Positions 7,881 through 26,107 are shown, counted from the first letter of the stretch. The stretch is 32,000 bases of DNA from Candidatus Iainarchaeum sp. (GCA_028713935.1 JAQTNI010000009.1:3406-35405); one strand, 5' to 3'. Numbers and translations are program-made. Notes: generated by a model not told the origin, from the sequence alone.

Positions 7881-7886
7881 TTTTTT

Positions 7887-9360: not shown

Positions 9361-10377
9361 TTACATTCCAAGCATTTTGAGGCTGCCAAGTACCTGCACT
9401 AAAATGATTCTTATTATGAAAAACAAGGCTACTGCTATTATTCCGACTATTGGGATGTATCTTATTCCGTCTTTTTCTTTGCCAGAGTTTATTGTGCCCA
9501 TTATTAAGGAGGAGAACAGGCATGTTACTCCGAGTGCAATCAGTGCGTACATTGTTGCGAATTCTTCTGTTATTGATATTTCGGGAATTCCGATTATTCT
9601 TGTTATTGAGCTTTTTTGTGTTATTTCTTTTAATTGTTCTGGGTTCATGCTTAGCTGGCTTGTTTGCACGTTTAGCACTCCGACTATGTAAGAGGAAATG
9701 CTGAACAGTACTGGTGCTCCTATTGCTGCCCCAAAAAAAATGAGCATTATGTACATGCTTACTTCTGCTTTTGTTTCTTCTTTTAACGCGTTTTCTTCTC
9801 TTAAATCATCTGCCAGTTGTGATAATAGGTCCGCCACTTCTCCGCCGCTTCTTATGCCCTGGACTACCAGCCACATTGTTCTTTCAAGCAATGGGCTTTT
9901 GATTCTTGTTGTTATGTCTGTCAGGGCTCCTTCTATTCTTTCTCCTGCAAGGACTTTTCCGCTTGCAAGTTTTAGTTCGTCTGAAAAAACCCCGAATTCC
10001 GGCCTTGCCGATGCAAGCAGTGCCCTTTCTGTTGTCAGGCCTGATTTCATGTTTGATGAAATCAATTGCAGCACATCCGGCAGGAGTTTGTCTACAAATT
10101 TGCCCCTGCTTTCTGCAATTGTGTTTAGCCAGTAATATATGCTTCCTGCAAATCCAAGAAAAATTAGTGGAAATGTTGCAATTATTGGCAGTGAAAAGAA
10201 TATTTGGAGGTTTGCTGATATTGCTATGCTTAGCACTGCCCCGAACAAAAAAATGAATCCAACTACGCTTAGTTCCTGTATTTCCCATCCAATGTAATCC
10301 ATTTCTTTTTTGAATGCCCTTACTATGAAGGAGGGGACTATTGCGCCTACTCTTTGGTAAAAACCCATTTTTTTCAC
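9361..10377 (-). CDS. type II secretion system F-domain membrane platform protein (TadC/EpdK/J-like)
   Basis: 338-aa ORF. It has N-terminal TM helices, one T2SSF domain (LLQLISSNMKSGLTTERALLASARPEFGVFSDELKLASGKVLAGERIEGAL...VVQGIRSGGEVADLLSQLADDLREE) and C-terminal TM helices. Confidence 0.8.
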   Translation of the reverse strand: MKKMGFYQRVGAIVPSFIVRAFKKEMDYIGWEIQELSVVGFIFLFGAVLSIAISANLQIFFSLPIIATFPLIFLGFAGSIYYWLNTIAESRGKFVDKLLPDVLQLISSNMKSGLTTERALLASARPEFGVFSDELKLASGKVLAGERIEGALTDITTRIKSPLLERTMWLVVQGIRSGGEVADLLSQLADDLREENALKEETKAEVSMYIMLIFFGAAIGAPVLFSISSYIVGVLNVQTSQLSMNPEQLKEITQKSSITRIIGIPEISITEEFATMYALIALGVTCLFSSLIMGTINSGKEKDGIRYIPIVGIIAVALFFIIRIILVQVLGSLKMLGM

Positions 10378-10381
10378 TTTG

Positions 10382-11257
10382 TCAGTTCATTATTGTTGGC
10401 CGTCTTGATTTTATTATGCCAATGTACATGAATTGCATTATTGTTATTCCTATTAATAATGCCCAGAACATCATTTCGTCTATTTTTATTGCGGGAAAGC
10501 TTCCCAGTATGATAAGAAATGTCAGTCCAAGCGCAGGCGCTATCACTCCAATCATCATGTATGCCAGGGAAAGAATCCTTAGTTGAGAGGAATACATGTT
10601 TATTGCTATTCTCTGGTCTCTTGCAGCGGATTTCACTGTTTCTTTTATTATGCTTGAAATGTCTCCGCCTGCTTTCATTCCGTTTACAAGCTGCCATAAT
10701 GCTTTTCTGAAATATTCGCTTGGGTTGTTTGTGGCAAGCTTTTGGAATACTTCATCGTAAGGCGTTCCAGTGTTTATTTCGTCAACTGCTTTTGCAAATT
10801 CTTTGCTTAATTCGCCATAATTGCTTTTTGCAATCATCTGCATTGCGTCAAAAAGGCTGACTCCGCTTTTTATTTCAATCAGCAAGGTTCTTAGTGCAAA
10901 CAAGAGGTTTTTTTCCAGTTCCCTCTGCCTTTTCCTTATCTGCATTGTGGGGTACATTGAAAATTGGATAAACACTGCCAGTGCCATTATTGCTGCTATT
11001 GTGAATCCCAATAACAAAAAATTTGGAGTGACTTTTGTCAGGACTATTGTGAACAATGCGCCAAGCCATATGAAATAAAAACCTGCCAAAAAAAGCATCA
11101 TTGCAAGGTATTCCCTTATTTGGAATTCCATTCTTGCCTGCTGCAATTGCAATTCCAGGTTGGGAAAAATTCCCTTGATTTTCATTGCCAGCGGGACTAA
11201 TGGCTGTGAAAACCTTCTCAGCATCGGGACAGGGAACAGGTTGAATGGCAGAGTCAT
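10382..11257 (-). CDS. type II secretion system F-domain membrane platform protein (TadB/EpdJ/K-like)
   Basis: 291-aa ORF with one T2SSF domain (LLFALRTLLIEIKSGVSLFDAMQMIAKSNYGELSKEFAKAVDEINTGTPYDEVF...LVNGMKAGGDISSIIKETVKSAARDQR) flanked by TM helices. There is a 4-nt gap to the next platform gene. Confidence 0.8.
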   Translation of the reverse strand: MTLPFNLFPVPMLRRFSQPLVPLAMKIKGIFPNLELQLQQARMEFQIREYLAMMLFLAGFYFIWLGALFTIVLTKVTPNFLLLGFTIAAIMALAVFIQFSMYPTMQIRKRQRELEKNLLFALRTLLIEIKSGVSLFDAMQMIAKSNYGELSKEFAKAVDEINTGTPYDEVFQKLATNNPSEYFRKALWQLVNGMKAGGDISSIIKETVKSAARDQRIAINMYSSQLRILSLAYMMIGVIAPALGLTFLIILGSFPAIKIDEMMFWALLIGITIMQFMYIGIIKSRRPTIMN

Positions 11258-11260
11258 TTT

Positions 11261-12778
11261 TTACAGCTCCGGCTTTTTGTTTTTTTCCACAAGATTTTTT
11301 ATTTCATCAATGTCCTGGTAGCATTGCGCCATTATTTTGCCGACTTCGTTCACATTGTGAATGTCAAATTTTATCATCCAGTTCAATATTTTTGTTTTTG
11401 TTTTTAATTCCTGCTGTATTTCTCCCTGGCTCATTCCTGTGTGCAGTGACAATTCATCATAGAATCTTATGCTTTCATTGTGCGCGACAATCTGGTCATC
11501 GCTGCTTCTCCATCTGTAAATTATGTTTGGCTTTATTTCAAGTTCTTTTCCCCTTTTTTCAGGGATAAATTCCGCTGCTTCAAGCACTCTTCTTGATCCC
11601 AGTCTCCTGTTTCTGAACATTACAATGTTTAAGTGCACTGAATCAAGCATTGAAACTGGGATTGAAACAGGCGGGTTTACAAGCCTTGTGATTGTTTCAT
11701 CGGCTGTGTTTGCATGGATTGTGGTGTAAACACTGTGCCCTGTGTGCATTGCTTCAAACATTACTTCTGCTTCTCTCTGCCTTCTGACTTCTCCAACAAT
11801 CACCCTGTCAGGCCTCATTCTCAATGAATTCACAAGCAAATCAAGCATTGTTATTCCGCCTTTTCCTTCAGGATTCGGCTCTCTTGTTGTCAATGGAACC
11901 CAGTGCAAATAATCGGGAAGCATGAGTTCCCTAGTATCTTCAATTGAAAGCACTCTGTGGTTTGGCTGTATGAAGGGCATGCAGACATTCAAAAAGCTTG
12001 TTTTTCCCGATGCTGTTCCCCCGCTGATAATGATGTTTAATTCGTATTCCATTGCTTCCCATATCAGTGCCATTAGTTCTGCGCTGACTGTTTTTGTTTT
12101 TATAAAATCAGTTACTGTCCATGGGTCTCTTCTGAAGCGCCTTATTGTGACAGTGTTTCCCTTGCTTGAAATTGGAAAAAGAGTTGCGTTTGCCCTGTCG
12201 CCTGTTATGAGATGGGCATCAAGCAATGGCGATAAGATTGTTATTTGTTTTCCAACGCGCCTTGCGATTATGTTTGCATAGTTTTCTATGTCTGCCTCTG
12301 TTTCTATGCGGACATTTGTTTTGAGCCAGCCGTATTTTTTGTGGTAAACCCATACTGGTTCCTGGCTCCTGTTTATGACTATTTCCTCAAGGTTTCCGTC
12401 TGACAAAAGAAATTCTATTCTTCCAAGGCCCAGCATTTCATGCATTAATATTCCAACAAGCGCTTTTTTTGTTTCTTCTGTTGCGGTTGGCAGTTCGGAA
12501 TCAAGCATTTTTTGGGCTTTTTCAACGAATTTGCCGCGGATTTTTTCCACTGCATCCATGTCAAGCTGGCCTGTTCTTGCAGCTGTTTCCGCTACAAGGC
12601 TTTTTTTCAGGTTTGTGAGCAGTGCGCTTGTTCCGGCGCCATAGCTTGGAAAATTCAGGTAATACATGTTTACAAATTCTTTCGGGTCATGGATAATGTT
12701 GGTTTCCACTTTCAGGTTGTCTGTTTCCACTGTGTAAGACTCAATTACCTGGTATTTTCCGTCCATTTCTGCCTGCAT
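11261..12778 (-). CDS. type IV pilus/secretion ATPase of the GspE/VirB11 (ArlI/EpdL/TadA-like) family
   Basis: 505-aa ORF. Walker A IIISGGTASGKTSFLN, Asp box VLSIEDTRELMLP, Walker B/His box DRVIVGEVRRQREAEVMFEAMHTGHSVYTTIHA. Confidence 0.9.
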   Translation of the reverse strand: MQAEMDGKYQVIESYTVETDNLKVETNIIHDPKEFVNMYYLNFPSYGAGTSALLTNLKKSLVAETAARTGQLDMDAVEKIRGKFVEKAQKMLDSELPTATEETKKALVGILMHEMLGLGRIEFLLSDGNLEEIVINRSQEPVWVYHKKYGWLKTNVRIETEADIENYANIIARRVGKQITILSPLLDAHLITGDRANATLFPISSKGNTVTIRRFRRDPWTVTDFIKTKTVSAELMALIWEAMEYELNIIISGGTASGKTSFLNVCMPFIQPNHRVLSIEDTRELMLPDYLHWVPLTTREPNPEGKGGITMLDLLVNSLRMRPDRVIVGEVRRQREAEVMFEAMHTGHSVYTTIHANTADETITRLVNPPVSIPVSMLDSVHLNIVMFRNRRLGSRRVLEAAEFIPEKRGKELEIKPNIIYRWRSSDDQIVAHNESIRFYDELSLHTGMSQGEIQQELKTKTKILNWMIKFDIHNVNEVGKIMAQCYQDIDEIKNLVEKNKKPEL

Positions 12779-12865
12779 AAAAATCTTTTTTTTTCCATTG
12801 ATTTTTTTTAATTTGCCATATTATTAACGGGTTTTGTGGTTATTAAGTTTGCGGATTTTTGGTTT

Positions 12866-15328
12866 TCATTTTCCCAAACTTTTTTCTTTTTTGATTTTTT
12901 TTTCTTTCTTGGGTTTTGAAGGCTTTACATAATCCGCGCTTTCAATTATTGTGTCCCCGAATGCGGGGTACTCTACTTTTATGAGGTGCTGGTCTTCAAG
13001 AATGTTTAAGAGTTCTTCAAGCCGTTTTTTTTCAATTTTGGTTTCTTTCCAGAGTTCCCCTGTCCTTATTTTTCCTTTTTCCCGGATTATCTGCAAAGTA
13101 AGGTCCATGTCTGTTTCAATCCTGAATTTCATTATTTCCTTTTCATTTGTCTTTAATTTTTCTTTTTCCTTGTTTTCAAGAGTGGTGGGAAAAGTCGGGA
13201 TTTCAGCTTCTGACCAGCCGACTTCGCCGGGCTCAATAATCACTCTGCGGGGCTCTTCAGAAGTTTTTTTGAAAAACCTTGTAATGGGCAAAGCCCTTAT
13301 GTGCAATTCTTTTTTTGGCCTTTGCATTCCTTCCACTTTTGCGCTTATTCTCCCCATTTCTTCAAGTTCTTCGCTGCGCGAAGCCCAGCCCTCTTCCCGG
13401 CTTGTCTTTTCTGTTTCTTCATTTCCTGCATCAGCATCAAGAGGTTTTTCGGCTTCAATGTCACCCGGCTTTTCAATTTCAATGGGCTCCTCAATTTTTG
13501 CCTCGTAATTTTTCTGCACCTGCTCTTCTTTTTGAATTATTGTTTCATGCAGTGCCTCATTGACCTGGACATTTGTTGTTTGCTGGCTTTCTTTTTTCTG
13601 TGCTCTCCTGAAAATTCCCCCGAAAAAGCCTTTTTTTGCCTGTTGTGCAGGAACAGTTGTTTTTGCTGTTTGCACTTCAATTTCTTCCTGAGGCAATGCT
13701 GTTTGCTCTTCTGTTATCCCTGAAATTTTGCTGTAATTTGGCGCAGGCGCCTGCACCGCAATTATTTTTTCTTTCGGGGTTTCCGCGCTTTTTTGCATTG
13801 CAGGCAACTGGCCTGTTGCAGTTGTTCCTGTTTGTGTTGCCGTGCTTGTTGTTTGTGGCTGTGTTTCAGGGCTTGTTTCCTGCATTGCTGTTGCCTGCCC
13901 AGGCAAGGCTTTTTCTTCTTCTTTTTGTTTTGTTAGCCAGGGAAACTGGAATCCTTTTTTTTCTATTTCCTGTTCTGCCTGCCTCTGCAATTCGTTCATT
14001 TTTGCGAGTTTTTCAAGGCTTGCAAGCAATTGGCTGCTGTCCAATGGCTTTATTTCCTGCACAATTTTTTTTTCCGGCATTTTGTAATTGTTTAATAATT
14101 CCACAATGTAATTTTCTATTTCCATTATTTTTTCGTCGCTAACCCTGCCTGAAAGCTTTTGCTCTATTGTTTTTTCAAGTTCTTTGCTAAGCCGTTTTTC
14201 CCTGCCTTTGGGGGCTGCTTTTGTTTTTTCAAGGATTTTCTTTTTTTCTTCAAGCTCATAAAGCTTTGCCTGGTAATCCATTACTTTTTCCTGAAAATCT
14301 TGTAGAGGGATTCTGCGCTTGTAAAAATCTATTTCCAGGCGTTTCTGCATTCTTTTCATCTGGTCTATCTGCTGGTCAGTGCTGAGCATTTCCTCGTGGC
14401 TTTCTATGACAATTTTTGGCTTTGGCGATGCCCTTGCAAGGCTTGCTGCCGCAAGAGTAATTGCCTTTGCGGCTTCAGCCAGATCAGTCATTGTTTTCAG
14501 TTCCAATGGCGATTTTGTCTCTTCCCTGAAAATAATCTGGCCTTTTGCCTGTTCAGTTGCAATTTGCTCCATTTCAAGGTTTTCTTTTGCGGAAGAAACC
14601 TTGCTGAGAAGCGCTATCTGCATTTTGTAGTCCCGAATTTTTTTTGTTAGCTGGCTTTTTTTCCTGGTTTGTTCCTCTGAAAGTTTTTTTTCTTCCTGCG
14701 CATGCTTTAACTGGTTCAGTTCCCTCTGGTATCTTGCCTGCCATGATTCAAGCCTGGTTATTTTTGACCTTATTTTTTTCAGGTTTTCTTTTAATGCTCC
14801 GGGCTCTTCCCTTATTTTTTCTGAAACCCCTTCAAGCCTTTCCATTTCAGGCGAAATTGCTTCAGGCTCTCCGCTTATTGCCTGTTCAGCAAACTCTTCA
14901 AATCCTTTTTTTGTTTCAGATGCAGGAATTTCCGGCATTGTTATTTTTTCCAGTTTTTCTTCCCTTGCCTTTCCGCCAAAAAGCCTCCTGAAAATCCTTG
15001 AAAAAAAGCCCTGTTTTTTTCCTGATGTTTTTGTTTCTTCCGCAAACATCCGTTTCCTCGCTGCTTCTTCTATCTGGGATTTTATTATTTCCCTTAAAAT
15101 CGGCTTGTCACCCGAAATCTGGGTTTCAATAATTCTGCCTATTTCGCTTTTCAACTGGTCAAAAGTATGTGCCTGTGCAACAAGAAGCATTCTTTTTGCC
15201 TCATCATCCTTTGCGCCAAGGCCCTGCAAGGTTTTAATTATTTTGTCTTCTGTTTCTCCTTCTCTCAGCATTTCGCCTATTATTTTGATTATTCCTTTTT
15301 CACTTTTTTCTTCAGGCATAAAAATCAT
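12866..15328 (-). CDS. Glu/Lys-rich coiled-coil protein with two MinD-MTS-like amphipathic motifs and a C-terminal winged-helix-like domain; function unknown
   Basis: 820-aa ORF directly upstream of the ATPase gene with no TM segment. Motifs are GKKQGFFSRIFRRLFGGKA (nt 14966-15022) and AKKGFFGGIFRRAQ (nt 13598-13639). The C-terminal LQIIREKGKIRTGELWKETKIEKKRLEELLNILEDQHLIKVEYPAFG lies at nt 12959-13132. Confidence 0.7.
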   Translation of the reverse strand: MIFMPEEKSEKGIIKIIGEMLREGETEDKIIKTLQGLGAKDDEAKRMLLVAQAHTFDQLKSEIGRIIETQISGDKPILREIIKSQIEEAARKRMFAEETKTSGKKQGFFSRIFRRLFGGKAREEKLEKITMPEIPASETKKGFEEFAEQAISGEPEAISPEMERLEGVSEKIREEPGALKENLKKIRSKITRLESWQARYQRELNQLKHAQEEKKLSEEQTRKKSQLTKKIRDYKMQIALLSKVSSAKENLEMEQIATEQAKGQIIFREETKSPLELKTMTDLAEAAKAITLAAASLARASPKPKIVIESHEEMLSTDQQIDQMKRMQKRLEIDFYKRRIPLQDFQEKVMDYQAKLYELEEKKKILEKTKAAPKGREKRLSKELEKTIEQKLSGRVSDEKIMEIENYIVELLNNYKMPEKKIVQEIKPLDSSQLLASLEKLAKMNELQRQAEQEIEKKGFQFPWLTKQKEEEKALPGQATAMQETSPETQPQTTSTATQTGTTATGQLPAMQKSAETPKEKIIAVQAPAPNYSKISGITEEQTALPQEEIEVQTAKTTVPAQQAKKGFFGGIFRRAQKKESQQTTNVQVNEALHETIIQKEEQVQKNYEAKIEEPIEIEKPGDIEAEKPLDADAGNEETEKTSREEGWASRSEELEEMGRISAKVEGMQRPKKELHIRALPITRFFKKTSEEPRRVIIEPGEVGWSEAEIPTFPTTLENKEKEKLKTNEKEIMKFRIETDMDLTLQIIREKGKIRTGELWKETKIEKKRLEELLNILEDQHLIKVEYPAFGDTIIESADYVKPSKPKKEKKIKKEKSLGK

Positions 15329-15346
15329 CTTCAGCTTGTATACTTA

Positions 15347-16498
15347 TCAGCTTGTTCCAATTTTAAGGTTTGTAAAGCCGGATTTTCCGACATTAAAATC
15401 AAAAGCATTGAATTTAACAAGAGCAATCGGCTCTTTGAAAATAATTTTTGTTGATGCAATTACTGGTGCGTGCTGGTCTGCTTTGTTGTCCATTCCAATA
15501 ATTACTTTCGGGTCGAAATCTTCTAATTTTGACTCATTTAGGATAAAAATATCTGTATAGCCTTCGCCCGCAAGTTTTAGGCTGAAATAATTGTCTGCTG
15601 TGCCAACATGATTTGAGCCTTCTGTAGAACAGCAGGAAAGGTCGCAGGGAGGCTGTGGGTCGCAATCCGCAATGGGGATCTGGCTATTGATATTAACATA
15701 AGGATTGGCATTTGATTGGAGAAATTCGTTTAACAGTGGGTTTTTTGAGCCATCCCCGAGGTCGCCATAATATTCCCATTTTTGTATCTGAATTGGCATG
15801 CCTGCATTTGGGCCTGTTGTTGGCTTTGGAATTGTCACATTAAAATCAATCATTCTTATTTTGCTTATGTCAAAGCTGCATCCATCATCTTCTCCATCAG
15901 TAAAAATTTGCAGCAAGGTTCCGTCAGGCTGCGGATTATAGGATATGCATTCGTCCAAAATCAGGTATGTGAACTTGTCGTTTCCTCCCCAATCGGAATT
16001 TTTAGCAGCCCTTGCAGTTATGTTTAAGTCTCCGTTTATGTTTTTGTCTGAAACAAAAATCGAGTAAAGGTTCAGCGCATCATACATCGCTTTGAGCTGT
16101 TCATCATCGCTGCTTATCGGGGTTTCCTGTGAAATTTCTATCCATCCGCATCCGCTTGGCGAAGCATTTGGGCCTGTGCAGGGGCAAATGTCATGGTCTT
16201 CACTTTCGGGGCAGCCATTTTCTTGGACACAGTCATCTTTGCAGGCCATGTTTCCCGCATCATATTCAAACGGAGTTAGAATCCTGCTCTGCAGCCTTCC
16301 TGCATAGCCTGTTTTTACTGCCAATGTTTCGTTGTAAATGTTTGCAAAGCCAGTGTTTACTGCGTCAAAAGCGGTTTCTTCAACAGTGCCTTGTTTTTGC
16401 CCGATTGTTGTTTGTTTTACCCCGCTTCCTGCAAGAATTATTGCCAGTCCCATTAGGAATATTACAAATGCAAGGAAAAAGCCTTTTTTGCTGTTCAT
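15347..16498 (-). CDS. membrane-anchored or pilin-like Cys-rich extracellular protein, function unknown
   Basis: 383-aa ORF. MNSKKG/FFLAFVIFLMGLAIILAG is a possible class III signal or a signal anchor. A Cys-rich segment follows (ACKDDCVQENGCPESEDHDICPCTGPNASPSGCGW). The ATG abuts the stop of the upstream gene (TAAATG at 16498/16499). Confidence 0.6.
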   Translation of the reverse strand: MNSKKGFFLAFVIFLMGLAIILAGSGVKQTTIGQKQGTVEETAFDAVNTGFANIYNETLAVKTGYAGRLQSRILTPFEYDAGNMACKDDCVQENGCPESEDHDICPCTGPNASPSGCGWIEISQETPISSDDEQLKAMYDALNLYSIFVSDKNINGDLNITARAAKNSDWGGNDKFTYLILDECISYNPQPDGTLLQIFTDGEDDGCSFDISKIRMIDFNVTIPKPTTGPNAGMPIQIQKWEYYGDLGDGSKNPLLNEFLQSNANPYVNINSQIPIADCDPQPPCDLSCCSTEGSNHVGTADNYFSLKLAGEGYTDIFILNESKLEDFDPKVIIGMDNKADQHAPVIASTKIIFKEPIALVKFNAFDFNVGKSGFTNLKIGTS

Positions 16499-19400
16499 TT
16501 ATTTCACCCAGGCAGCGTATTGCACTTTGAAGTAATAAACTTTTGATTCGCCCAGGCAGTATATTTGTGCTGTGTTGTGCAAGCTGCAGTCTTTTGCACC
16601 GCTTATCACTCCCCAGATATAACCTTCGCCTAACAATTTTGTGTTGCTAGTTGAAACAGTGTAATTTGGCGCTGCAGGCTGGTATTGTAAATTTTTATCT
16701 GCAGTTATGGAAAAAGTGCCGCAGTTTCCTGTGCAACCTGACGGTGGCAGGTCTGTGTCAATGTGGGTTGTCATTGTGTTATTTTTATAAAATCCAATGT
16801 AAAGGTCTTTTGGCGCTGTGAATCCAACACAGTTTAATTCAAAATTTAGTCTTGTGTCTTGAGGCCCATATATTGTTCCGCAGTCTGTTCCTATGCATGT
16901 GAATTTTATCTGGCAGTCCCTGTAGCCAAATGGCACTGTTTGCCTGCATGTTGCCAGGTCGTATGGGCAGTTTGGCATGCAACTACTGTCGCATTCAGTC
17001 TCTGTTCCCCAAATGTAATTATTCTGGTCTTTTATTATTGTTGTCTGCGGAGGCGGAAATTTTATTGTATCGCTTTGGCAGTATTCTCCTGTGCAGGGAA
17101 TTCTTTCCTTGAATGTCTGGCTTTTGTATTCTCCTGCAATGTCAACATCAAAAGTTATGCTTTGGTTTGTCCACTCGGGGTTTGTTGTGCAGGCAGGAGT
17201 GTCATCTGCTTTTAGGCATTTGTAAGCGTCTGTTCCAATGGTTTCGTATTTTTCGCATTTGCATATTTCTGTTCCCGGCTCGGCTTCTATGGTTATTTTT
17301 GTATTTGGAATTGCTGTTCCAATTTCTTCTGCAATCAATGCGTATATTTCCGTTAAAGTGCTTTGGTCTGCCGCAAAATAATATCTTCCGCACTGCTGGA
17401 CTTTGTTAATTTCCAGGCTTGGCCAGTTTGAAAAACATTCGGGATATTTTGGGTTTGAACCGTTCATTCTGGCTTCTTCGCAGGCTCCTGTTGCATCATA
17501 GCTTGTGCAGGGGTCTTTTGCAATGTCCCTTAAATCCTCTGCGGCAGCATCTCCGCCAAAACCAATTGCATAAACAGTAATTCCTGTGCTTCTTGCATTA
17601 TCCGCTTGCAGTATTGCATATTGCACTGCCTCCGCGGGTGTGCAAGCTGTTCCTCCTTCACATTTGTTTGCCTGTCCGTCTGTAAGCAGCACAATGAATT
17701 TTTTGTTTTGTGTATTAAATGCCGCGCTTGCAATTCCTATTGCGTCTCCAATGTTTGTTTCTCCGCTCGGATTCATTGTTTTGGCAGGGTCTGGGCCAAA
17801 ACTGTCAGTGCCGTTTAAAGTTCCTATCAAATTTGTTTTTCCAGCTGCATTAAGAAGAATCGGGCCTTGGTTAAGCACTGCCGTAGTTGAATAGCTCGCT
17901 ATTCCCATTTTGTCTTCTGATTTCCATTGTGCGTTGTTTATGAATGTTATTGCTGCCGAAAGCGCAGCGTCAATTCTTTTTATAGACCAATCAATGTTGT
18001 AACTTGTAAGATATTCAGCCCAGCCTATTACACTGTAATCTCCTGCTGGGATTGGCTGGCCTGTTGCAGTGTTGTCATAAATTATGCTCTGGCTTGTGCA
18101 TGTGTCCATTGAATCCGCGTTTGTGCAATTTACTCCGTAACCGTTATTGTCTAACCAGCCTTTTCTTGGGCGGGGATAATACCATTTCAAATTTGAGCTT
18201 CCAGATATTGGATTTTCAAATCCAATTGCTCCGCCTGCACAGACAGCGCCAGAGTCGCCTATAAGTGATGTGGAAATTTTGAGCCCGCGGAATTTATAAT
18301 TGTCTGTGATTGTTGTTGTGTCCAGGTATGTTGCTGAACTTTCTATGCTTGGCAGGCTTGCAACAGCATTGCTTGGGTTTGTCGGGCAGTTTGTTTCTCC
18401 GGGAATCATTGGTGTTGTTGTGCTTGTGCAGGTTGCACCGCTGCAGGTCCCCCCGCTTATTGAATCTGTCCTGCCAAAATTTCCAAAAACAAGGCCAAAA
18501 GAATTGCTTACAGTAGTTTGAACATTGAATGTTACTGCAGAATCAGACCAGGCCCATAATTCATAATCCCCTGTTGTTTCAAATGGTCCCGATAAGCTGC
18601 TTCCCCAATTTATTGAGCAGGGAGTTCCCTGTGCGCAAGTGCTGCTGGTCCAATCAACTGCCCCGCTGCTATTTTTGTGCGTAACATAAAATCTTGGCCA
18701 TCTGCAGTCTCCGCTGTAATTCTGGTAATTGCTGATTTGCCAGCCAATTCCGTAAATTTGATTATATTTTACAAGATCATAAGGAAAAGTGTATGAACTA
18801 ATTTTTTGCCAGTTCCCGTAATTGCTGCAGTCAGTTGGATTTTCTCCTTCCTGATATGTTCCTTCGTGTGTTCCTGTTCCGCTTGCACTTAAACCTGAAG
18901 CAGTAATTGAAGCCGGATTTTGCCGTAAATAAACATAATATCCTACTGGTGAATCGCTCCAGGCGTTTACTCCGTAGTTGTAGCCATAGCTTGGCCCCAG
19001 GCTTAATACTGTGTTTCCGCTTATGGCCTCGTAATAGAGGTAGCCGACGTTGTTTACTATTGCGCCGTTTGGTTGTGTTACCCAGATTCCTTGTGTTCCA
19101 TCTCCTGCATAATTATTTTTGCATGCCCCGTTGTATGTTGTTCCTGATGAAATGAAATAAAGAGTGTCATTGCTTAAAATTTTGTTCAAGGTGCCTTGGC
19201 TTGAAAAATCATATGAGCCTGAGCTTTGCTTGTTTGTATACGCGGTTGATGCTTTGCTTAAAGGGCAATTCGTGGTTGTTTGTGCCGGCGTGTCTGGATT
19301 TAAAACACAGCTAGGCCCGCCTCCGTTTAGCCAATTGTACAATGCTCCTGTGTTATTGTTGCCTGAGGAATCCGAAGCAATATTTCCGCTTGATTCGTTA

Positions 19401-20950
19401 AATGCCCAGTATCCAACCAAATTTGCATTGTTATTGAAAACCCCGTTATAATGCTGGTTAATTTCTACTGCAGTAAGCACCCTGTGGTAAACTCTTACTT
19501 CGTCTATTATGCCGTTAAATTCGTTTGTGATTGGCGGGACTCCTGGCCAGCCTGTTAAAGAATCACTGCCTGTTTTCCAAAATCCTGCATAATTTTTGGC
19601 TGTTCTTGTGATTGTGTCTCTTGCCACTGGGTTTGGGTTTCCGTCAACATAAAGTTTCATTCCTACTGTGCTGCTTAGTGTTGCTACAACATGGTGCCAT
19701 TGCTGATTATTGTATCCTACCATGCTGCTTAGATTTGCAACAATATTTTGCTGTTGTTGGCTATTGTCTCCTGCCAATTGAGGAACTACCATTGAGGGGC
19801 TTGTTATTACTTTTTTTGTTGTGCCGGAAATAATTCCAAAGGAAAGAGTGCCATTGTCGCGCATATAAATTAGCCTGTCTGTATTTGTGCTTGTTCCTAC
19901 CTGGCTGTTTCCAAAGCCTATCAGCCTTCCGCCATTTATGTTATCCGAAGTTGTTTTGAACCATAATTCTATGGAAAAATTTGTGGGATTTGTAAAGCCA
20001 TTATATGTTGTTACAAAAGTGTTTGCTGAACCAAACCTTAGTGCGTGGCTTCCTCTTTTTCCCGGTGCAACCCATTTTTCCGTTGTGTTTGTGCAGTATC
20101 CATAATTGATTTGCCCGATTGGGCTTGCAGTTGCTATTGGCGAGTCCATGTCAAATTTTGACATTGTAAGGCTTCTGTCTATTATTGTCATTATTGCTAT
20201 TGGGTCTCTTATTCCGCTTTTTTCGCTTATTGTGACTGTTGCCACTTCATTGGCATCTACTCCGTCTTCAGAATCATAACAGTACATTTTTGATGTTGGC
20301 ACAAAAAGTTCCGGCGTCTCAGTGCCTGGAGTGTTTGTTGTACTTACTTTTGTTGTTATTGTTGTTGCTGTTTCGTCCAATTGCAGCGTTGTGTTTTTTT
20401 TGTTTTCAGAGGCTGTTTCTATTATGCAGTTGTTTGCAATGTTTCCTTTCATATAGGGCTGCCTTTTCATGAATGCCTGGCTTCCAGTGTAAATTTCCTG
20501 GTTTGAGGGTATTTGCTGGCCTCCTGTTGCTTCTGAAACTTTGTTGAAGCATTCGTTGAATTGTGTTGTGCCAGGAGGGGGATTTCTGCAGCTTGCCAGG
20601 TCTGTGTTTTTTTGTTCAAATTGTTCTATTTGTATGTTTAAATCCATGTTTTCCGGCAATATTTTTTTCATTTCAAAGTAAAGCAAATCTGCGTCAAAAT
20701 TTGTAAGCGGGTTTCCTGTGTTGTCTACAAATATTTGCCCTATTATGCCGTTGTTGTCCATTGCAGTCACTGCATCGTCAAGCATTTGTTTTGCGTTTGC
20801 CTGCCGGGTTATGCTTGCAGTTGGCGCTTCCGTCATTATTCCCAATCCAAGATAGGATATCAGGGCAATGAGAATTGCTATTGCAAACAATGTGTCCAAT
20901 GAAATTACAAATCCTTTTTCACGGGTTTTTTCAGCAATCATTTTTTCCAA
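16499..20950 (-). CDS. giant pilin-anchored adhesin: class III signal-like N-terminus, split vWA domain with a nested LamG/ConA-like lectin domain, Cys-rich C-terminus
   Basis: 1483-aa ORF. The first codon is TTG at 20950, and the ATG at 20941 (MIAEKTREKG/FVISLDTLFAIAILIAL) is the more likely start. MIDAS-like IIDRSLTMS lies at nt 20159-20200. LamG elements (FSIELWFK, QWHHVVATL, KLYVDG, IIDEVRVYHRVL) lie at nt 19436-20053. The vWA remainder (GETNIGDAIG, KFIVLLTDGQAN, ITVYAIGFGGD) lies at nt 17318-17983. Confidence 0.85.
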   Translation of the reverse strand: MEKMIAEKTREKGFVISLDTLFAIAILIALISYLGLGIMTEAPTASITRQANAKQMLDDAVTAMDNNGIIGQIFVDNTGNPLTNFDADLLYFEMKKILPENMDLNIQIEQFEQKNTDLASCRNPPPGTTQFNECFNKVSEATGGQQIPSNQEIYTGSQAFMKRQPYMKGNIANNCIIETASENKKNTTLQLDETATTITTKVSTTNTPGTETPELFVPTSKMYCYDSEDGVDANEVATVTISEKSGIRDPIAIMTIIDRSLTMSKFDMDSPIATASPIGQINYGYCTNTTEKWVAPGKRGSHALRFGSANTFVTTYNGFTNPTNFSIELWFKTTSDNINGGRLIGFGNSQVGTSTNTDRLIYMRDNGTLSFGIISGTTKKVITSPSMVVPQLAGDNSQQQQNIVANLSSMVGYNNQQWHHVVATLSSTVGMKLYVDGNPNPVARDTITRTAKNYAGFWKTGSDSLTGWPGVPPITNEFNGIIDEVRVYHRVLTAVEINQHYNGVFNNNANLVGYWAFNESSGNIASDSSGNNNTGALYNWLNGGGPSCVLNPDTPAQTTTNCPLSKASTAYTNKQSSGSYDFSSQGTLNKILSNDTLYFISSGTTYNGACKNNYAGDGTQGIWVTQPNGAIVNNVGYLYYEAISGNTVLSLGPSYGYNYGVNAWSDSPVGYYVYLRQNPASITASGLSASGTGTHEGTYQEGENPTDCSNYGNWQKISSYTFPYDLVKYNQIYGIGWQISNYQNYSGDCRWPRFYVTHKNSSGAVDWTSSTCAQGTPCSINWGSSLSGPFETTGDYELWAWSDSAVTFNVQTTVSNSFGLVFGNFGRTDSISGGTCSGATCTSTTTPMIPGETNCPTNPSNAVASLPSIESSATYLDTTTITDNYKFRGLKISTSLIGDSGAVCAGGAIGFENPISGSSNLKWYYPRPRKGWLDNNGYGVNCTNADSMDTCTSQSIIYDNTATGQPIPAGDYSVIGWAEYLTSYNIDWSIKRIDAALSAAITFINNAQWKSEDKMGIASYSTTAVLNQGPILLNAAGKTNLIGTLNGTDSFGPDPAKTMNPSGETNIGDAIGIASAAFNTQNKKFIVLLTDGQANKCEGGTACTPAEAVQYAILQADNARSTGITVYAIGFGGDAAAEDLRDIAKDPCTSYDATGACEEARMNGSNPKYPECFSNWPSLEINKVQQCGRYYFAADQSTLTEIYALIAEEIGTAIPNTKITIEAEPGTEICKCEKYETIGTDAYKCLKADDTPACTTNPEWTNQSITFDVDIAGEYKSQTFKERIPCTGEYCQSDTIKFPPPQTTIIKDQNNYIWGTETECDSSCMPNCPYDLATCRQTVPFGYRDCQIKFTCIGTDCGTIYGPQDTRLNFELNCVGFTAPKDLYIGFYKNNTMTTHIDTDLPPSGCTGNCGTFSITADKNLQYQPAAPNYTVSTSNTKLLGEGYIWGVISGAKDCSLHNTAQIYCLGESKVYYFKVQYAAWVK

Positions 20951-21040
20951 TCCGGCTTTAATTTATTTTATTATAATTAATATTTTTTTAATATAAAATT
21001 GTATTGCCAATGTTTTTTTGGGCAGTTTTAGAAACCAAAG

Positions 21041-21670
21041 TCAATTGTATGCCCAGAGTTCAATTGTTGCTGTTCCGCTGTAGCCAGCCCCTTCATAATA
21101 AACTATTCTTTTTTGCGCAATTACTTTTTTTGCGTATGCGCTCGGGGTTACGCCTGTTTCCATTTCTGTTTCCGAACCGCGTATTTTTTCCTTAATCAAT
21201 TTTTTTTCCGATGCATTATTAGGGCTAAAATAATAAATCTGGAAATAATAATTCATGTCTCCCAGGAGCAATAATTTTGCCTTTGTTTTTTCATAATCGC
21301 CAAAGCAGTTTGCCTCGCAATCAGGCCAGATTTTTCCATATTCCACAAATTTTGCAAGCTTGTTTGAGTCTATTGCCCTGTCTCTTTTTGCAAGGCCAAT
21401 GAACAGCACATTGTCAATGCTTGGGGCAAATTGCCAGTCTGTTCCGCCGTTTATTTTTTCGCCTGGGCTTTTTACAATAAAATTCAGTGTTCTTGCGCTC
21501 GTTGCAGCCATTTCATAGTCTTTCAGCTGGTTTTCTGCAAAAGAATTCTGGTTTTCCCAGATTGTAACCGCAATTGCAAGCACTGCGAGAAAAATTGTTG
21601 TTCCAATGACTATGTCAAGGGAAACAGCCTGTGCTTTTTTGTCACTGCCCAGTGAATACAACAAAACCAC
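21041..21670 (-). CDS. pilin-like protein (class III signal peptide, Gln +1), minor pilin candidate
   Basis: 209-aa ORF. SDKKA/QAVSLDIVIGTTIFLAVLAIAVTIW. It overlaps the upstream pilin-like gene by 29 nt, so the exact start is uncertain. Confidence 0.6.
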   Translation of the reverse strand: MVLLYSLGSDKKAQAVSLDIVIGTTIFLAVLAIAVTIWENQNSFAENQLKDYEMAATSARTLNFIVKSPGEKINGGTDWQFAPSIDNVLFIGLAKRDRAIDSNKLAKFVEYGKIWPDCEANCFGDYEKTKAKLLLLGDMNYYFQIYYFSPNNASEKKLIKEKIRGSETEMETGVTPSAYAKKVIAQKRIVYYEGAGYSGTATIELWAYN

Positions 21671-22052
21671 CTTTTTTTGACAATTTATAGTTTCTAACTG
21701 TTAAAGAAATTCCACTTGCGTTTGTGTCCCCATGATCCTGATCAATCTGTGCGTTTCCAAAATAATGGCACGAATAAAGCCCCACTGTTATCTGCCCAGG
21801 ATTTCCTATGATTTTTTGGATTGCGACATTTTCTCTTGCAACAAAAATATTTTTTTCCGCTATTCCCTGGCTTGAATAAATTTCTGAAATCGCATCTGCT
21901 ATTTTGTTGCATTCAATGCCGTCTGAATTTATGCCTGTTATAAAATTGGTTTGAACTGTTTGCTGCGCATAAGCAGTTACTCCAATCAAGAGCAATGTCA
22001 TTGCAACAAGCGCAGCAATGAGGAATTCAAAAGAAACCTGGGCTTTTTTCAA
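21642..22052 (-). CDS. pilin-like protein (class III signal peptide, Gln +1), minor pilin candidate
   Basis: 136-aa ORF. MKKA/QVSFEFLIAALVAMTLLLIGVTAYA. Confidence 0.7.
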   Translation of the reverse strand: MKKAQVSFEFLIAALVAMTLLLIGVTAYAQQTVQTNFITGINSDGIECNKIADAISEIYSSQGIAEKNIFVARENVAIQKIIGNPGQITVGLYSCHYFGNAQIDQDHGDTNASGISLTVRNYKLSKKGGFVVFTGQ

Positions 22053-22061
22053 GGTTCCACC

Positions 22062-22589
22062 TTACTTTTCCAGCCGGATTAATTTCCTGTCAGTCCAGCT
22101 TACTTTAATTTTGTACCTGAAATTGTTTATCAAAATCGCAGTGTCAGTCCCGTCAGGTATTATAAGCCTTGCTTTTGTGGGATAAAGCAATTCGTTTCCA
22201 GAAATTTCAATTACTTTTACTGCGCTTGATTTTATGCAGTCATCCCCATTAGAGCACTGCTTGCCTGCGCCGCTGCAATTGCAGTTTGCTCCCTGTGCTC
22301 CATCACAGCCAATCATTTCCGCGTTTGTTTTGCAGAGGCTGTAGATGCTTATGCCTGTCACTTCGCCTGGCCAGCTTACTTCTGCAAATTGGACATTGCC
22401 CGGGCCCATTGCATAAACAAGGTTTATTGTTTGTACAAGATTGTCAAGGCTTTCGCCTGCCTGTTGTGTGCTAATGTTCTGGCTTGTTGTTGCAAGTGAA
22501 GCGCTGAACAGGACAATGACTATTACCATTGCAAAAACGCTTACCATCAGGTATTCCATTGAAGCCTGCGCGGTTTTTTCTACTTTCAT
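22062..22589 (-). CDS. pilin-like protein (class III signal peptide, Gln +1), minor pilin candidate
   Basis: 175-aa ORF. MKVEKTA/QASMEYLMVSVFAMVIVIVLFSASL, with a Cys-rich loop (CDGAQGANCNCSGAGKQCSNGDDC). Confidence 0.7.
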   Translation of the reverse strand: MKVEKTAQASMEYLMVSVFAMVIVIVLFSASLATTSQNISTQQAGESLDNLVQTINLVYAMGPGNVQFAEVSWPGEVTGISIYSLCKTNAEMIGCDGAQGANCNCSGAGKQCSNGDDCIKSSAVKVIEISGNELLYPTKARLIIPDGTDTAILINNFRYKIKVSWTDRKLIRLEK

Positions 22590-22654: not shown

Positions 22655-25600
22655 TTAGCTGCAATTGCCGCTGTTCCAGGTTTTGCCTGCAAGAACACAA
22701 ATTTTGTCTGCTGTCAAGGCTTTTTTCCAGATTGAAACATCGTCAATCAAACCAGCAAAATGACCCGGTTCATCCTGCCAGCCAAAACCAATATACGCCG
22801 CATGCAAATCGCTTGCATCAGAATAATCATGTAAAATCAGGGCAGGATTACTGGATTCGCCAGCCAGGCTTCCATCAATATAATACTTCCAGCCAACGCC
22901 GCTTTCAAAAACAAAAGCAACCTGATGCCACTCATTTTCGGCAATTGTTCCAGTGGAAGTAGGCCAAGAATTAGACTGGTTGCTTCCGTTCCGAACCATT
23001 GAAACCAAATGGCCAAAAGAATAAGAAGAAGAACTGCCGGCACTGAAATAATCAAATCCGCCTAAATGTTGGGTTACAATATTTATCTGATTCACGTAAT
23101 CCGGTTTAACCCAGGCAACAACAGTAGTAGAACTGTTCTCGCCGCCATACGTTGAAAGAGCACTCAAAGAACTGTCAAAACGAATATGGTCAGGGCCAGA
23201 AACACCACCGCGGAAAGAAAAAGCACCACTACCGTTGTGGCCTCCAGTTGCCTGACAAGTCGCTCCCACAACTGTTCCGTTACGATGATTTCCGGACTGG
23301 TCCCAGGCATTGCAATGGTCAAAACTCCAATAAGCAACCAAGTCAGGGTCGCAATCGTTTGGGCAACTGGTAAAACTTTCCCCGCCAGCATTTTCACAAA
23401 TGCCATTATTGTTGCAAGAAGGGAGTCCATAAGAATGGCTACTCCAATCTAAAGGGCCAGTATTATCAGCAACCTCTACTCCATCAGAAAAACCGTCAAA
23501 ATCAGAATCCGGATTAGTCGGGTCAGTACCGCGGGCAAACTCCTGCGAATTGATAAGGCTATCATTATCAGGGTCGCCAAGGCCATTCTGCGAAGTAATA
23601 TTCCCAAAATACTGCACTTCCCAATCATCCCGCAAACCATCCCCATCTGCATCCAAACCCTCAGTAGTAAAGGAATCGACAGAACCCCAAAGAATCTCAT
23701 TCAAAATATCGGCAGCCCGATTTGAAGAACGGATGCGGAAATTATAATCAGTATTCGGATTCAAACCAGAAAGCGTTATGCTATGAAAAGTCGTAAAAGA
23801 AGGGTCACCTATGATCCCATCTGGGCCACTAAAATAGGTAGTAGGATGTGTCTCATGATAGGGATTGTACCACCAAGAACCATTGCTTGTGTAAGCAACC
23901 TCGCTATCAGAAGGCAAATTAGTCTCCCACTGAATCGTAAAAGAAGTGCCAGTAACTGGTATTATCTGAATATTTGTCGGAGCCCTAAACCAGCCATTCT
24001 GTGCATCAACTGGCCAAGCAGTGTCAAGATTTGATGAATACGAAGCTTTCCTCTGATCATAAAGAGGCTTAAAATAACTCAGCCAAGCACCAGAACGGCT
24101 AAATTGTGCACTATTAAGATTCTGCGCCAAAACACGGAACATTTCTTTTGTGGAAATAGCAGCACGCGCACTACTAACGCGAATATTTGAGCCAATTGCC
24201 TGGGACATTCCATATCCTGAAACAAAAAATCTAAAATAAGGGTTATTAGGGCTCTCTACTTCAGCCATGGGCCCGGTTTCTCCTGTAAGCGTGTAATCAA
24301 CATACGCATCAATCATGACTGCCCTTCGGCCAGTATAAGCCAAATAAGCATCCCAGGCATCAACAGAATCATGATGATAAATAATTCCGTTATCACCAAT
24401 ATCTGTGCGGACTTGGCGAATAAAATTATAATCCTGTTGCAAATCCCCTGCATCCGCATTGTCAAAATACCAGCCATCAAAATTATTTTCTTCCTGGAAT
24501 TCTTTCATCCAAGACAAGGTTACCTGGATATCCTGCTGGTTCCACCAGTATATGGATGGCGCAGACATATAAGTAATGACTTTGAAATTGTGTGCATGGG
24601 CAAAAGAAACAAAATCCTGCAATAACTGTTTGTCAATGTCCCGGATTTTATACCCCATAATGCCAGAAGGCAAAAGCACCGGGACTTCCCCTATTTTACC
24701 GGGAGTGTTTTCATATGCAACGCTTGCCCAAAGCAAAAAAACTCCAAAACCGTCGTTAACATAATTGTCCACATTTGTCCCGGACATCAGATTAGTCAAG
24801 TCATCAGGGGTGTATAAGAAATGAACAAAAGGCTTTGAGCTTGCCCCATATAATTTTTCAAAATCAAATTTTTTTGGGGGAAAAACCATGTTTCCCATTG
24901 AACTGCCGGCTCCCAAAGAAATGCTTGTAGAATCTGTTGTTTCATTTGAAACAACTGGGTTTCCCTGCATTTTTGCATGCAAAGAACCGCCATACCCGTC
25001 TGTCCAAATTCTGTCTGTTCCTGTTCCTTTGTTCCAGGGCGCAGCAGCAACCAAATTGTTGTAGGTGTAGGCGAATGGCTCTTTGGCTTCAATAATGAAA
25101 AAAGAATCCGAATTGAAAACAAAGCGTGCTTTGTCGCTTTGCACAATTGCCTGTATTGTTGTTGCGGATTCAACAGTTAAATTTGAAATTGTGTTTTCAA
25201 AAGAGATTTCTGCAACTTTTCTGGGGGTTTCTGTGTCATTATTGGTTGCGGGGTCAATGCGGCGCCATAATTCAATTCCGTCTTGTTTTATAATGTACAA
25301 GGCGCCTGTGGTTGTAATTTCAATTTGATCTTCGTCTTGAAAAGCAGAAAAGATGCTCATGCCAAAAAACCCGTTGCCAGTGCAGTCCAGTGGGCAGTTG
25401 CTTGCTGTTTCGCCTGCCTCGCATGTTCCGTTGTTGTTGCAAACGGCTTGTCCTGTGCATTGGCAGTTTGTGCAGGTAAATCCTGCTTGGCATTGCGCTT
25501 GCCCTGTCCCGTCGCATTGTTCTGTTTGGCCTTCGCTGTTTGGGTCGGTTATAATATTGTCTCCGCAATAGGTTGTGCAGTCTGTTGGGCAAGTGGCATT

Positions 25601-26107
25601 GGTTTCTCCTGTTTCGCATGTTCCGTTTCCACAGTTGCTTGTTGTTTGGCAGTCAGTGTCGTTTAAAGGAGTGCAGGTTGCTGGGCAGCAGTTGTCTCCG
25701 TTTGTGCAGGTTGTTATGTCTGTGTAGGTGCAGGTTTGGCTTGTGCAGGTTGCTGTTTTGCAGTTTTGTGATGTGCAGTCTGCTTCTGTTGTACAACTTG
25801 TTCCTGTGTTTGTTTTGTTGAGGCAGTCTGGTGTTATTAGTATTGCTGTTGTTCCTGTGCATTTGTTTGCTGCGAATGACCATTCGCAGTCTGAGTATTG
25901 GCAGTTTCCTGTTCCATCCGGGTCGTTTCCTGCTTGGCCACATTGTGTGGATGAGAATTTTGCGCAGATTGTGTTCAGGACTTCTATTTGTGTGCTGTTG
26001 ATATTTGTGCCGCTGGCATTGAAGAGTATTACAATTGCCAGTGCTGCCACTATTACTGCCCCGCCAATTATCAGCAGGTATTCCAAACTGCTTTGCGCGT
26101 TGTTCAA
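22655..26107 (-). CDS. giant pilin-anchored multidomain surface protein: Cys-rich modules, TIM-barrel glycoside-hydrolase-like region, Fn3, Ca-binding TSP3-like repeats, C-terminal LamG
   Basis: 1150-aa ORF with a TTG start at 26107. MNNA/QSSLEYLLIIGGAVIVAALAIVILF is the class III signal. Cys/Thr-rich region at nt 25379-25966. Hydrolase-like region (FVSFAHAHNFKVITYM, NNFDGWYFDNADAG, GIIYHHDS) at about nt 24008-24850. Fn3-like (FTIQWETN...TDYNFRIRS) at nt 23663-23995. DADGDGLRDDWE / DPDNDS / DSDFDGFSDG at nt 23453-23656. LamG (LVAYWSFD...EWHQVAFVF...YYIDG...GLIDDVSIWKKAL) at nt 22703-23347. Confidence 0.85.
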   Translation of the reverse strand: MNNAQSSLEYLLIIGGAVIVAALAIVILFNASGTNINSTQIEVLNTICAKFSSTQCGQAGNDPDGTGNCQYSDCEWSFAANKCTGTTAILITPDCLNKTNTGTSCTTEADCTSQNCKTATCTSQTCTYTDITTCTNGDNCCPATCTPLNDTDCQTTSNCGNGTCETGETNATCPTDCTTYCGDNIITDPNSEGQTEQCDGTGQAQCQAGFTCTNCQCTGQAVCNNNGTCEAGETASNCPLDCTGNGFFGMSIFSAFQDEDQIEITTTGALYIIKQDGIELWRRIDPATNNDTETPRKVAEISFENTISNLTVESATTIQAIVQSDKARFVFNSDSFFIIEAKEPFAYTYNNLVAAAPWNKGTGTDRIWTDGYGGSLHAKMQGNPVVSNETTDSTSISLGAGSSMGNMVFPPKKFDFEKLYGASSKPFVHFLYTPDDLTNLMSGTNVDNYVNDGFGVFLLWASVAYENTPGKIGEVPVLLPSGIMGYKIRDIDKQLLQDFVSFAHAHNFKVITYMSAPSIYWWNQQDIQVTLSWMKEFQEENNFDGWYFDNADAGDLQQDYNFIRQVRTDIGDNGIIYHHDSVDAWDAYLAYTGRRAVMIDAYVDYTLTGETGPMAEVESPNNPYFRFFVSGYGMSQAIGSNIRVSSARAAISTKEMFRVLAQNLNSAQFSRSGAWLSYFKPLYDQRKASYSSNLDTAWPVDAQNGWFRAPTNIQIIPVTGTSFTIQWETNLPSDSEVAYTSNGSWWYNPYHETHPTTYFSGPDGIIGDPSFTTFHSITLSGLNPNTDYNFRIRSSNRAADILNEILWGSVDSFTTEGLDADGDGLRDDWEVQYFGNITSQNGLGDPDNDSLINSQEFARGTDPTNPDSDFDGFSDGVEVADNTGPLDWSSHSYGLPSCNNNGICENAGGESFTSCPNDCDPDLVAYWSFDHCNAWDQSGNHRNGTVVGATCQATGGHNGSGAFSFRGGVSGPDHIRFDSSLSALSTYGGENSSTTVVAWVKPDYVNQINIVTQHLGGFDYFSAGSSSSYSFGHLVSMVRNGSNQSNSWPTSTGTIAENEWHQVAFVFESGVGWKYYIDGSLAGESSNPALILHDYSDASDLHAAYIGFGWQDEPGHFAGLIDDVSIWKKALTADKICVLAGKTWNSGNCS

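Follow-up and report, generated by a model that had tools for sequence, protein, structure and literature searches.

Modular type IV pilins are known from bacteria, where a complete pilin module (the α1 helix plus a globular β-sheet) is joined to additional functional modules; LamG (PF13385), Fn3 and vWA are among the modules most commonly grafted, S74 and M26 peptidase cargo has been predicted, and in Streptococcus sanguinis PilB carries a vWA and PilC a LamG-type lectin module, probably displayed at the tip of the fibre (PMC8179133). In archaea, the Epd pilins of Methanococcus (PF04021/DUF361) are cleaved by EppA, and the sugar-binding proteins of the Sulfolobus bindosome are non-pilin passengers that carry a class III signal and depend on homologues of the pilus-assembly machinery (PMC3387779). 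Here we compare these systems with a gene from a stretch of 32,000 nucleotides of Candidatus Iainarchaeum sp. (GCA_028713935.1, JAQTNI010000009.1:3406-35405; the whole stretch is called the window below). The open reading frame (ORF) at 22655-26107 joins a pilin-type head to a module resembling glycoside hydrolases (GH). In our judgement there is an even chance that it encodes an accessory, modular pilin-headed glycosidase presented by the type IV pilus (T4P)-like machinery of this DPANN archaeon.

Like the bacterial modular pilins, the encoded protein of 1150 amino acids (aa) opens with a pilin-type signal and helix to which further modules are attached, and the operon in the window also holds a giant protein with LamG and VWA. 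Unlike them it is archaeal, bears an EppA-type A/QxSxE signal (the slash marks the predicted cleavage site) where the bacterial proteins have the IPR012902 motif, lacks a recognisable globular pilin module after α1, has a long stalk rich in Cys with at least five modules, and carries a GH-like barrel, a cargo absent from the text of the survey in PMC8179133. With the Epd pilins it shares a short leader, Gln at +1, a QxSxExxxL-type motif and a hydrophobic helix, although its Pfam score falls under the cut-off. Where the Sulfolobus bindosome has solute-binding proteins as passengers, the passenger here is a predicted enzyme. Enzyme-fused pilins go unmentioned in a 2016 census of archaeal T4P loci, and a literature search returned no described GH-fused archaeal pilin, no precedent from DPANN and no paper with the WTDGYGG motif found in the enzyme module. 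The pilin-headed architecture contains an uncharacterised GH-like enzyme family for which neither Pfam nor NCBIfam has a model.

The enzyme module lies in the middle of the protein, where a Pfam scan of all 1150 aa gave no match between aa 30 and 705. An AlphaFold2 model of aa 244-707, for which an alignment of the 60 homologues from a word-indexed search was used, reached a pLDDT of 95 and a pTM of 0.93 and shows a β-sandwich of 16 strands (aa 244-410) ahead of eight β/α units (aa ~425-695); the barrel modelled by itself had a pLDDT of 82.8. The region of alternating strands and helices, in which an earlier note made from the sequence alone had tentatively seen a TIM-barrel hydrolase that structure prediction could check, is thus modelled as an eight-stranded β/α barrel, and as a model-based claim this fold is solid, whereas assignment to any one GH family is not. 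The β-sandwich adds to that description: these 167 conserved residues always stand ahead of the barrel.

The structural neighbours of the modelled region are almost all glycoside hydrolases. When both domains were compared with the PDB by Foldseek, the best match was the GH36 A-antigen galactosaminidase 9awt (E 3.5e-10), followed by GH31, GH129, the GH36 enzyme AgaA and GH97; these matches have E-values of 3.5e-10 to 1e-7 and a probability of 1.0, but low TM-scores of 0.3-0.45. The barrel alone matched GH18, GH27, GH13, GH5 and GH31 structures at TM-scores of 0.5-0.57 and E ~1e-6 (GH27 at 0.54-0.57), and a library of viral structures returned GH5, GH18, GH13, α-galactosidase and Spherulin-4 models.

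Conservation among homologues points to one face of this barrel. The word-indexed search with aa 244-707 found 60 homologues at E <= 1e-3, the best of them 47-48% identical over 99% of the region; none has a Pfam domain in that region, and most continue with an Fn3 domain. When 1.84 billion cluster representatives (clusters at 50% identity) were searched exhaustively with a profile, the family grew to 453 representatives at E <= 1e-3, of which 116 reach E <= 1e-30. The members belong to Patescibacteria, Planctomycetota and DPANN archaea, and the enzyme family is concentrated in ultrasmall lineages of episymbiont type (Patescibacteria and DPANN) together with Planctomycetota. In an alignment of 179 retrieved proteins to the barrel profile, with denominators that vary per column, D549 is kept in 166/166 and E610 in 173/173 sequences, H579 in 165/166, G545 in 164/166, R567 in 163/167 and D544 in 155/166. 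The aspartates of the FDGWYFD motif, singled out in the earlier note as candidates (D544 first, D549 second), are thereby conserved, the second without exception. With a barrel fold, GH-like fold matches and conserved acidic residues all found, neither of the outcomes that the note had named as refuting its reading was observed. In a separate alignment of a distant branch, with 35 members ~20% identical to the query, the Asp, His and Glu are again invariant. In the model, D549 lies at the end of β4, H579 at the end of β5 and E610 two residues past β6, all on the C-terminal face, which is where the active sites of TIM-barrel enzymes sit. A loop of the β-sandwich, RxWTDGYGGSLHA, is near-invariant as well and may for that reason help to build the active site. 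CBM_4_9, a GH59-type lectin domain, LamG and PKD are frequent in the homologues, LamG also on the Patescibacteria and Planctomycetota versions, and with such carbohydrate-type modules a glycan substrate fits.

One homologue, from Micrarchaeota (L004, 1151 aa), is 45% identical over the part that corresponds to aa 213-1142, including a Cys-knot, the sandwich, the barrel, Fn3, TSP3 and LamG; it has membrane anchors at its N- and C-termini and no pilus neighbours. A metagenome ORF of >5731 aa with a missing 5' end (L041, 36-17231) holds the sandwich, barrel and Fn3 module in the middle of the protein.

The remaining modules of the Iainarchaeum protein agree with those proposed in the earlier note, and the motifs quoted there are all found: QSSLEY at aa 5, FVSFAHAHNFKVITYM at 499, NNFDGWYFDNADAG at 541 and GIIYHHDS at 574, with the acidic repeats DADGDGLRDDWE, DPDNDS and DSDFDGFSDG at aa 819, 845 and 867. 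Above the Pfam cut-offs are Pur_ac_phosph_N (aa 710-815, 36.3 bits, cut-off 30), fn3 (aa 709-798, 28.8 bits, cut-off 25), TSP3_bac (26.7 bits, cut-off 25) and Laminin_G_3 (aa 991-1137, 71.9 bits, cut-off 27.6), the last also matching 4qvs in the PDB (E 1e-4).

The head of the protein resembles others of the locus in which it lies. Its N-terminus, MNNA/Q5-S-S7-L-E9-Y-L-L-I13, fits the EppA-type QxSxExxx[L/I] pattern with a short leader, a small residue at -1 and Gln at +1, and a hydrophobic α1 follows straight after the predicted cleavage site (95% of aa 11-30 are A, V, L, I, F, M, G or W). BLASTP aligns it with the N-terminus of the adjacent pilin-like protein pil175 (E 2e-6), and [A/G]Q-x-x-x-(E/D) with a hydrophobic helix opens 6 of the 151 window ORFs of at least 60 aa, all of them pilin-like: the present ORF, the three small genes of the operon and two stand-alone paralogues at 6511-7038 and 27627-28328. 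The other archaeal homologues of the enzyme have plain transmembrane anchors or signals of the KG/V or RG/F type. Taken together, the QxSxE-type motif, the alignment to pil175 and the different N-termini of those homologues indicate that the head is of the locus's own kind, which strengthens the earlier suggestion of a pilin-type N-terminus.

The stalk that follows, described before as Cys/Thr-rich, proved to be 214 aa long (aa 30-243) with 30 Cys (14%), 21% Thr and several of the 19 N-x-S/T sequons of the whole protein. Four-Cys knots of the form CxxxGxCxxGExxxxCPxDC occur at aa 159-177, 223-242 and 898-919. This mini-module of ~20 aa sits at module boundaries and is also present in L004, L047, P0066 and P0103; because it recurs before the β-sandwich in unrelated proteins of DPANN, the candidate phyla radiation (CPR) and metagenomes, it appears to be a portable disulfide-knot linker.

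Head and cargo also differ in their synonymous codon usage. At fourfold-degenerate sites, A and T account for 65% and 5% in aa 1-243 and for 49% and 19% in the nine other genes of the operon; the corresponding values are 18% and 47% in aa 411-1150, and 29% and 33% in eleven other genes of the window. Synonymous usage in aa 1-243 is like that of the pilus operon. Aa 411-1150 are set apart both from the operon genes (p 3.6e-33) and from the other eleven (p 3e-6), and their usage has no counterpart elsewhere in the window. Composition is intermediate in aa 244-410, the shift being gradual over aa 240-420 with a break at ~24850-25380, and the same compositional feature shows up as positive AT skew in an island at 23001-25000. 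Since the usage switches inside the ORF, a foreign enzyme cassette was probably joined to the operon-native head and stalk in recent time, and the mosaic would then offer a rare view of a graft soon after the event.

Based on these observations, the following role can be proposed. A prepilin peptidase would cut the short leader between A4 and Q5, and α1 (aa 5-29), which is of the same type as in the pilins of the locus, would let the T4P-like machinery hold or incorporate the protein, most likely as a minor subunit or a rare one at the tip. The stalk, disulfide-rich and judging from its composition probably glycosylated, would hold the cargo away from the fibre; this cargo would comprise the β-sandwich and barrel, then Fn3 as a spacer, the Ca-binding TSP3 repeats and the lectin-like LamG domain. 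The barrel is predicted to act as a retaining glycosidase, with D549 as nucleophile, E610 as acid/base and H579 assisting, and it may cut surface or matrix glycans that belong either to a partner cell or to the environment, for which LamG and TSP3 would supply the binding.

While display on a pilus is plausible, several results weigh against this proposal. The class III signal (PF04021, aa 2-27, 19.1 bits, E 0.0013) is under the Pfam cut-off of 23.7, no globular pilin domain is evident at aa 30-100, and the 32,000-nt window holds no prepilin peptidase gene. Searches of Pfam, NCBIfam and, by phmmer and profiles, of PDB sequences gave no significant family assignment of the barrel. Syntenic operons in four relatives (L022/L023, L024, L025 and L026; ATPase 70-76% identical) hold orthologues of all nine other operon genes and no orthologue of the ORF, whose place is occupied in L022 by a divergently oriented gene; since these four lack it, the pilus does not require the enzyme gene. 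By tblastn with all operon proteins, no T2SSE, T2SSF or pilin gene lay beside a homologue at any of 53 loci (20 from genomes, 31 from metagenomes and two more from archaea, P0006 and P0059), and the link to a pilus is a single instance. Finally, although the ORF speaks for such a link by being co-oriented with the T2SSE/T2SSF operon and lying 65 bp upstream of it, the AT-rich TATA-like element and T-run in this gap before pil175 make separate transcription of the enzyme gene possible. The earlier note had called it the first gene of the operon, which holds only for position and orientation. A further TATA-like element, TTAAAAATA, lies ~55 nt upstream of the ORF.

Part of this evidence would suit the main rival, a bindosome-like surface enzyme, in which the class III signal serves only for processing by a prepilin peptidase and anchoring at the cell surface and the protein scavenges or remodels glycans outside the fibre. 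There is firm precedent for archaeal proteins that carry a class III signal without being pilins (PMC3387779). Homologues elsewhere have Sec, lipoprotein or transmembrane N-termini and are ordinary secreted or membrane-anchored proteins, and the related operons without the gene, its possible own promoter and terminator, and the undetected pilin globular domain all point in this direction. Such a role is possible, if somewhat less than likely: the N-terminus is of the A/Q-x-S-x-E-Y-L type of the operon's own pilins, as opposed to the KG/V or RG/F of other archaeal homologues, the 5' third of the gene shares the unusual synonymous codon usage of the operon, and the gene abuts it.

Perhaps, at the other end, the protein is part of a fully enzymatic pilus. 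Here an active glycosidase of an unrecognised GH family would be borne at the tip, the fibre would bind through LamG and TSP3 and locally digest an envelope or matrix glycan of the host at the point of contact, and horizontal transfer would have supplied the cargo for fusion to a native pilin head. We consider this complete scenario unlikely.

The identity of the enzyme family is a separate matter. The strand motifs had been compared in the earlier note to those of GH114-like families, and an endo-α-1,4-galactosaminidase-type member of GH114, GH135, GH166 or GH191 would have as its substrate a cationic exopolysaccharide such as Pel or galactosaminogalactan (GAG). The substrates of these families (Ega3, Sph3, PelA, TmGH191) are polysaccharides of the extracellular matrix; Asp serves as nucleophile and Glu as acid/base, and a three-stranded β insertion lies between β3 and α3, with 58-69 residues between Asp and Glu in GH114, GH166 and GH191 (PMC12054363). 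The present family is like them in its modelled eight-stranded barrel, its candidate Asp/Glu pair and the D549-E610 spacing of 61 residues; in addition, 4 of 50 homologues match GH114 weakly (best E 0.023), one distant member has a weak Pfam match to Spherulin4 (GH135), and 9awt, the top Foldseek match, acts on galactosamine, though it is a GH36 enzyme. The query itself, however, has no match to Pfam GH114 (PF03537) at E <= 1, and neither Foldseek search has a structure of the four families among its first 50 matches (entries 6oj1, 2aam, 5tcb, 5c5g and 9ep/9eu). Profile searches of PDB sequences reached no GH114, GH166 or GH191 sequence at E <= 10 and only, weakly, the β3-α3-β4 segment of GH18, GH13 and GH31 (E 0.006-1), and DSSP assigns no strands between β3 and α3 in either model, so that the insertion is missing. 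The obligatory N-terminal β-sandwich matches the architecture of GH31, GH36 and GH97 instead, and among 103 neighbouring ORFs at 17 homologue loci Pel- or GAG-type biosynthesis genes are not recurrent; in the Pfam scan of these ORFs no family occurred at more than two loci and no clue to the substrate emerged. Membership of the GH114 group is thus improbable and unsupported, and the family is therefore treated as a distinct, unclassified GH-like one.

The α-glycosidases of the clan GH-D type and related ones (GH36 9awt and 4fnu; GH31, GH97, GH129; the barrel of GH27) come closer in their layout, as they combine an N-terminal β-sandwich with a barrel and are the best structural matches, and the position of the invariant Asp at the end of β4 is a further point in common. 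The D-G-x-x-x-D context of D549 resembles the nucleophile motifs of GH31, GH13 and GH27. Enzymes of clan GH-D have Asp as the second acid after β6, unlike the invariant Glu (E610) found here, there is no detectable sequence relationship, and TM-scores are only 0.3-0.57. Homology to GH31 is not claimed, because an hhalign comparison of the barrel profile with E. coli YicI gave a probability of 0.14. A GH18-type mechanism (DxxDxDxE on β4) was also considered; in a weak alignment to GH18 3co4 (E 0.019), D549 falls on the third Asp and Ala551 on the position of the catalytic Glu, which excludes that mechanism. Within these bounds the most probable role of the modelled barrel family is that of a retaining glycosidase in which D549 would be the nucleophile and E610 the acid/base.

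Alternatively, the barrel could be a carbohydrate-active or otherwise hydrolytic enzyme that is no glycosidase, with D549, H579 and E610 as metal ligands like those of a metal-dependent esterase, phosphodiesterase or isomerase-like enzyme, or it could be lectin-like and non-catalytic. An invariant Asp-His-Glu trio could indeed bind metal, and a phage glycerophosphodiesterase and barrels like those of sugar-phosphate isomerases/epimerases are among the lower-ranked fold matches, with no family assignment to decide for glycosidases. Yet glycoside hydrolases dominate all three fold searches with the best E-values and TM-scores, a β-sandwich ahead of a barrel is a glycosidase architecture, the homologues carry carbohydrate-binding modules, and the absolute conservation of the acidic pair speaks against a non-catalytic role, which makes a non-glycosidase slightly more improbable still than a GH114-type enzyme. 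That the pilin-like 5' end and the cassette were joined by metagenome mis-assembly, or that the true start lies downstream, is very improbable: synonymous usage does switch inside the ORF, and an exact-sequence look-up found the full-length product nowhere else on record, with a C-terminal 517-aa fragment (P0056) as its sole independent recovery, but the frame is open over 3453 nt with a sensible start context (TTG and upstream GGTG, common to the neighbouring genes), codon usage changes gradually and does so within a conserved module, the same junction of Cys-knot and sandwich recurs in the independent homologues L004, P0066 and L047, and starts at internal Met codons would strip the export signal from a clearly extracellular protein.

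The family of 453 clusters with its Asp/His/Glu set is a concrete target for CAZy-type characterisation, and its substrate could reveal glycans that are attacked or harvested by Patescibacteria, DPANN and Planctomycetota. If the pilin head is functional, the protein would be a modular pilin from archaea that carries an enzyme, extending the bacterial idea of module grafting to archaea and to catalysis, and it would provide a testable mechanism by which DPANN cells breach or remodel the surface of a partner.

Table 1 Features of the ORF at 22655-26107 and of the adjoining operon, in positions of the window.
Feature	Position	Strand	Detail or basis
Whole ORF	22655..26107	(-)	1150 aa, 3453 nt uninterrupted, TTG start, GGTG 5 nt upstream
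Class III (prepilin-type) signal and hydrophobic α1 helix, aa 1-29, MNNA/QSSLEYLLIIGGAVIVAALAIVILF	26021..26107	(-)	Pfam PF04021 below cut-off, BLASTP, motif scan
Cys/Thr-rich stalk, aa 30-243	25379..26020	(-)	composition
N-terminal β-sandwich of enzyme module, aa 244-410	24878..25378	(-)	AlphaFold2 model, conservation
Predicted eight-stranded β/α barrel, aa 411-707, GH-like, no Pfam/NCBIfam model	23987..24877	(-)	models, Foldseek
D549 codon, C-terminal end of β4 (FDGWYFD), predicted nucleophile	24461..24463	(-)	conservation, model
H579 codon, end of β5 (IIYHH)	24371..24373	(-)	conservation, model
E610 codon, two residues past β6 (YTLTGE), predicted general acid/base	24278..24280	(-)	conservation, model
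Fn3 / purple-acid-phosphatase-N-like domain, aa 708-816	23660..23986	(-)	Pfam
Bacterial TSP3-type acidic Ca-binding repeats (DADGDG, DPDNDS, DSDFDG), aa 817-895	23423..23659	(-)	Pfam
Third Cys-knot linker, aa 896-920, CNNNGICENAGGESFTSCPNDC	23348..23422	(-)	motif
C-terminal Laminin_G_3 (concanavalin-A-like lectin/glucanase fold), aa 921-1150	22658..23347	(-)	Pfam, PDB
Conserved type IV pilus-like operon adjoining the ORF	9361..22589	(-)	Pfam, comparison with relatives
Three small pilin-like genes	22062-22589, 21642-22052, 21041-21670	(-)	N-terminal motif
LamG+VWA pilin-like giant, 1483 aa, N-terminus ...EKGFVISLDTLFAIAILIAL	16499-20950	(-)	Pfam
383-aa operon protein, no family assignment	15347-16498	(-)	orthologues in all four related operons
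820-aa operon protein, no family assignment	12866-15328	(-)	orthologues in all four related operons
T2SSE ATPase	11261-12778	(-)	Pfam
Two T2SSF platform genes	10382-11257, 9361-10377	(-)	Pfam

The nearest relatives of the T2SSE ATPase in the adjoining operon (Table 1) come from Diapherotrites and Micrarchaeota. The LamG+VWA giant, which is kept in the related operons at 1162-1725 aa, joins in one protein the modules that S. sanguinis distributes over PilB (vWA) and PilC (LamG). In L024 a Laminin_G_3 domain brings the operon's third small pilin to 403 aa (1486-2697), so that the grafting of modules onto pilin heads recurs in this type of operon. The 820-aa protein has a weak match to a TFIIE-alpha-like winged helix (aa 731-786, E 2e-4, below the cut-off).

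The two stand-alone pilin-like paralogues, 6511-7038 (+) and 27627-28328 (+), have near-identical N-termini (GQAALEYLMTYGWALV and AQAGLEYLMTYGWALV) and a 'VCSSSDPTK' segment in common, and probably serve the system as its major pilins. In relatives, a homologue of these stand-alone pilins lies just downstream of the T2SSF genes. A gene pair for a KaiC-like ATPase and a DUF7504 protein is found near the T4P-like operon in the window (66-1423 (-)), in L022 (14129-15575) and in L024 (19741-21080), and fits the association of KaiC with T4P noted before (PMC4858521). Between the operon and one of the stand-alone pilin genes lies a pair encoding an AbiEii toxin and an AbiEi-like antitoxin (type IV toxin-antitoxin; 7122-8597 (-)).

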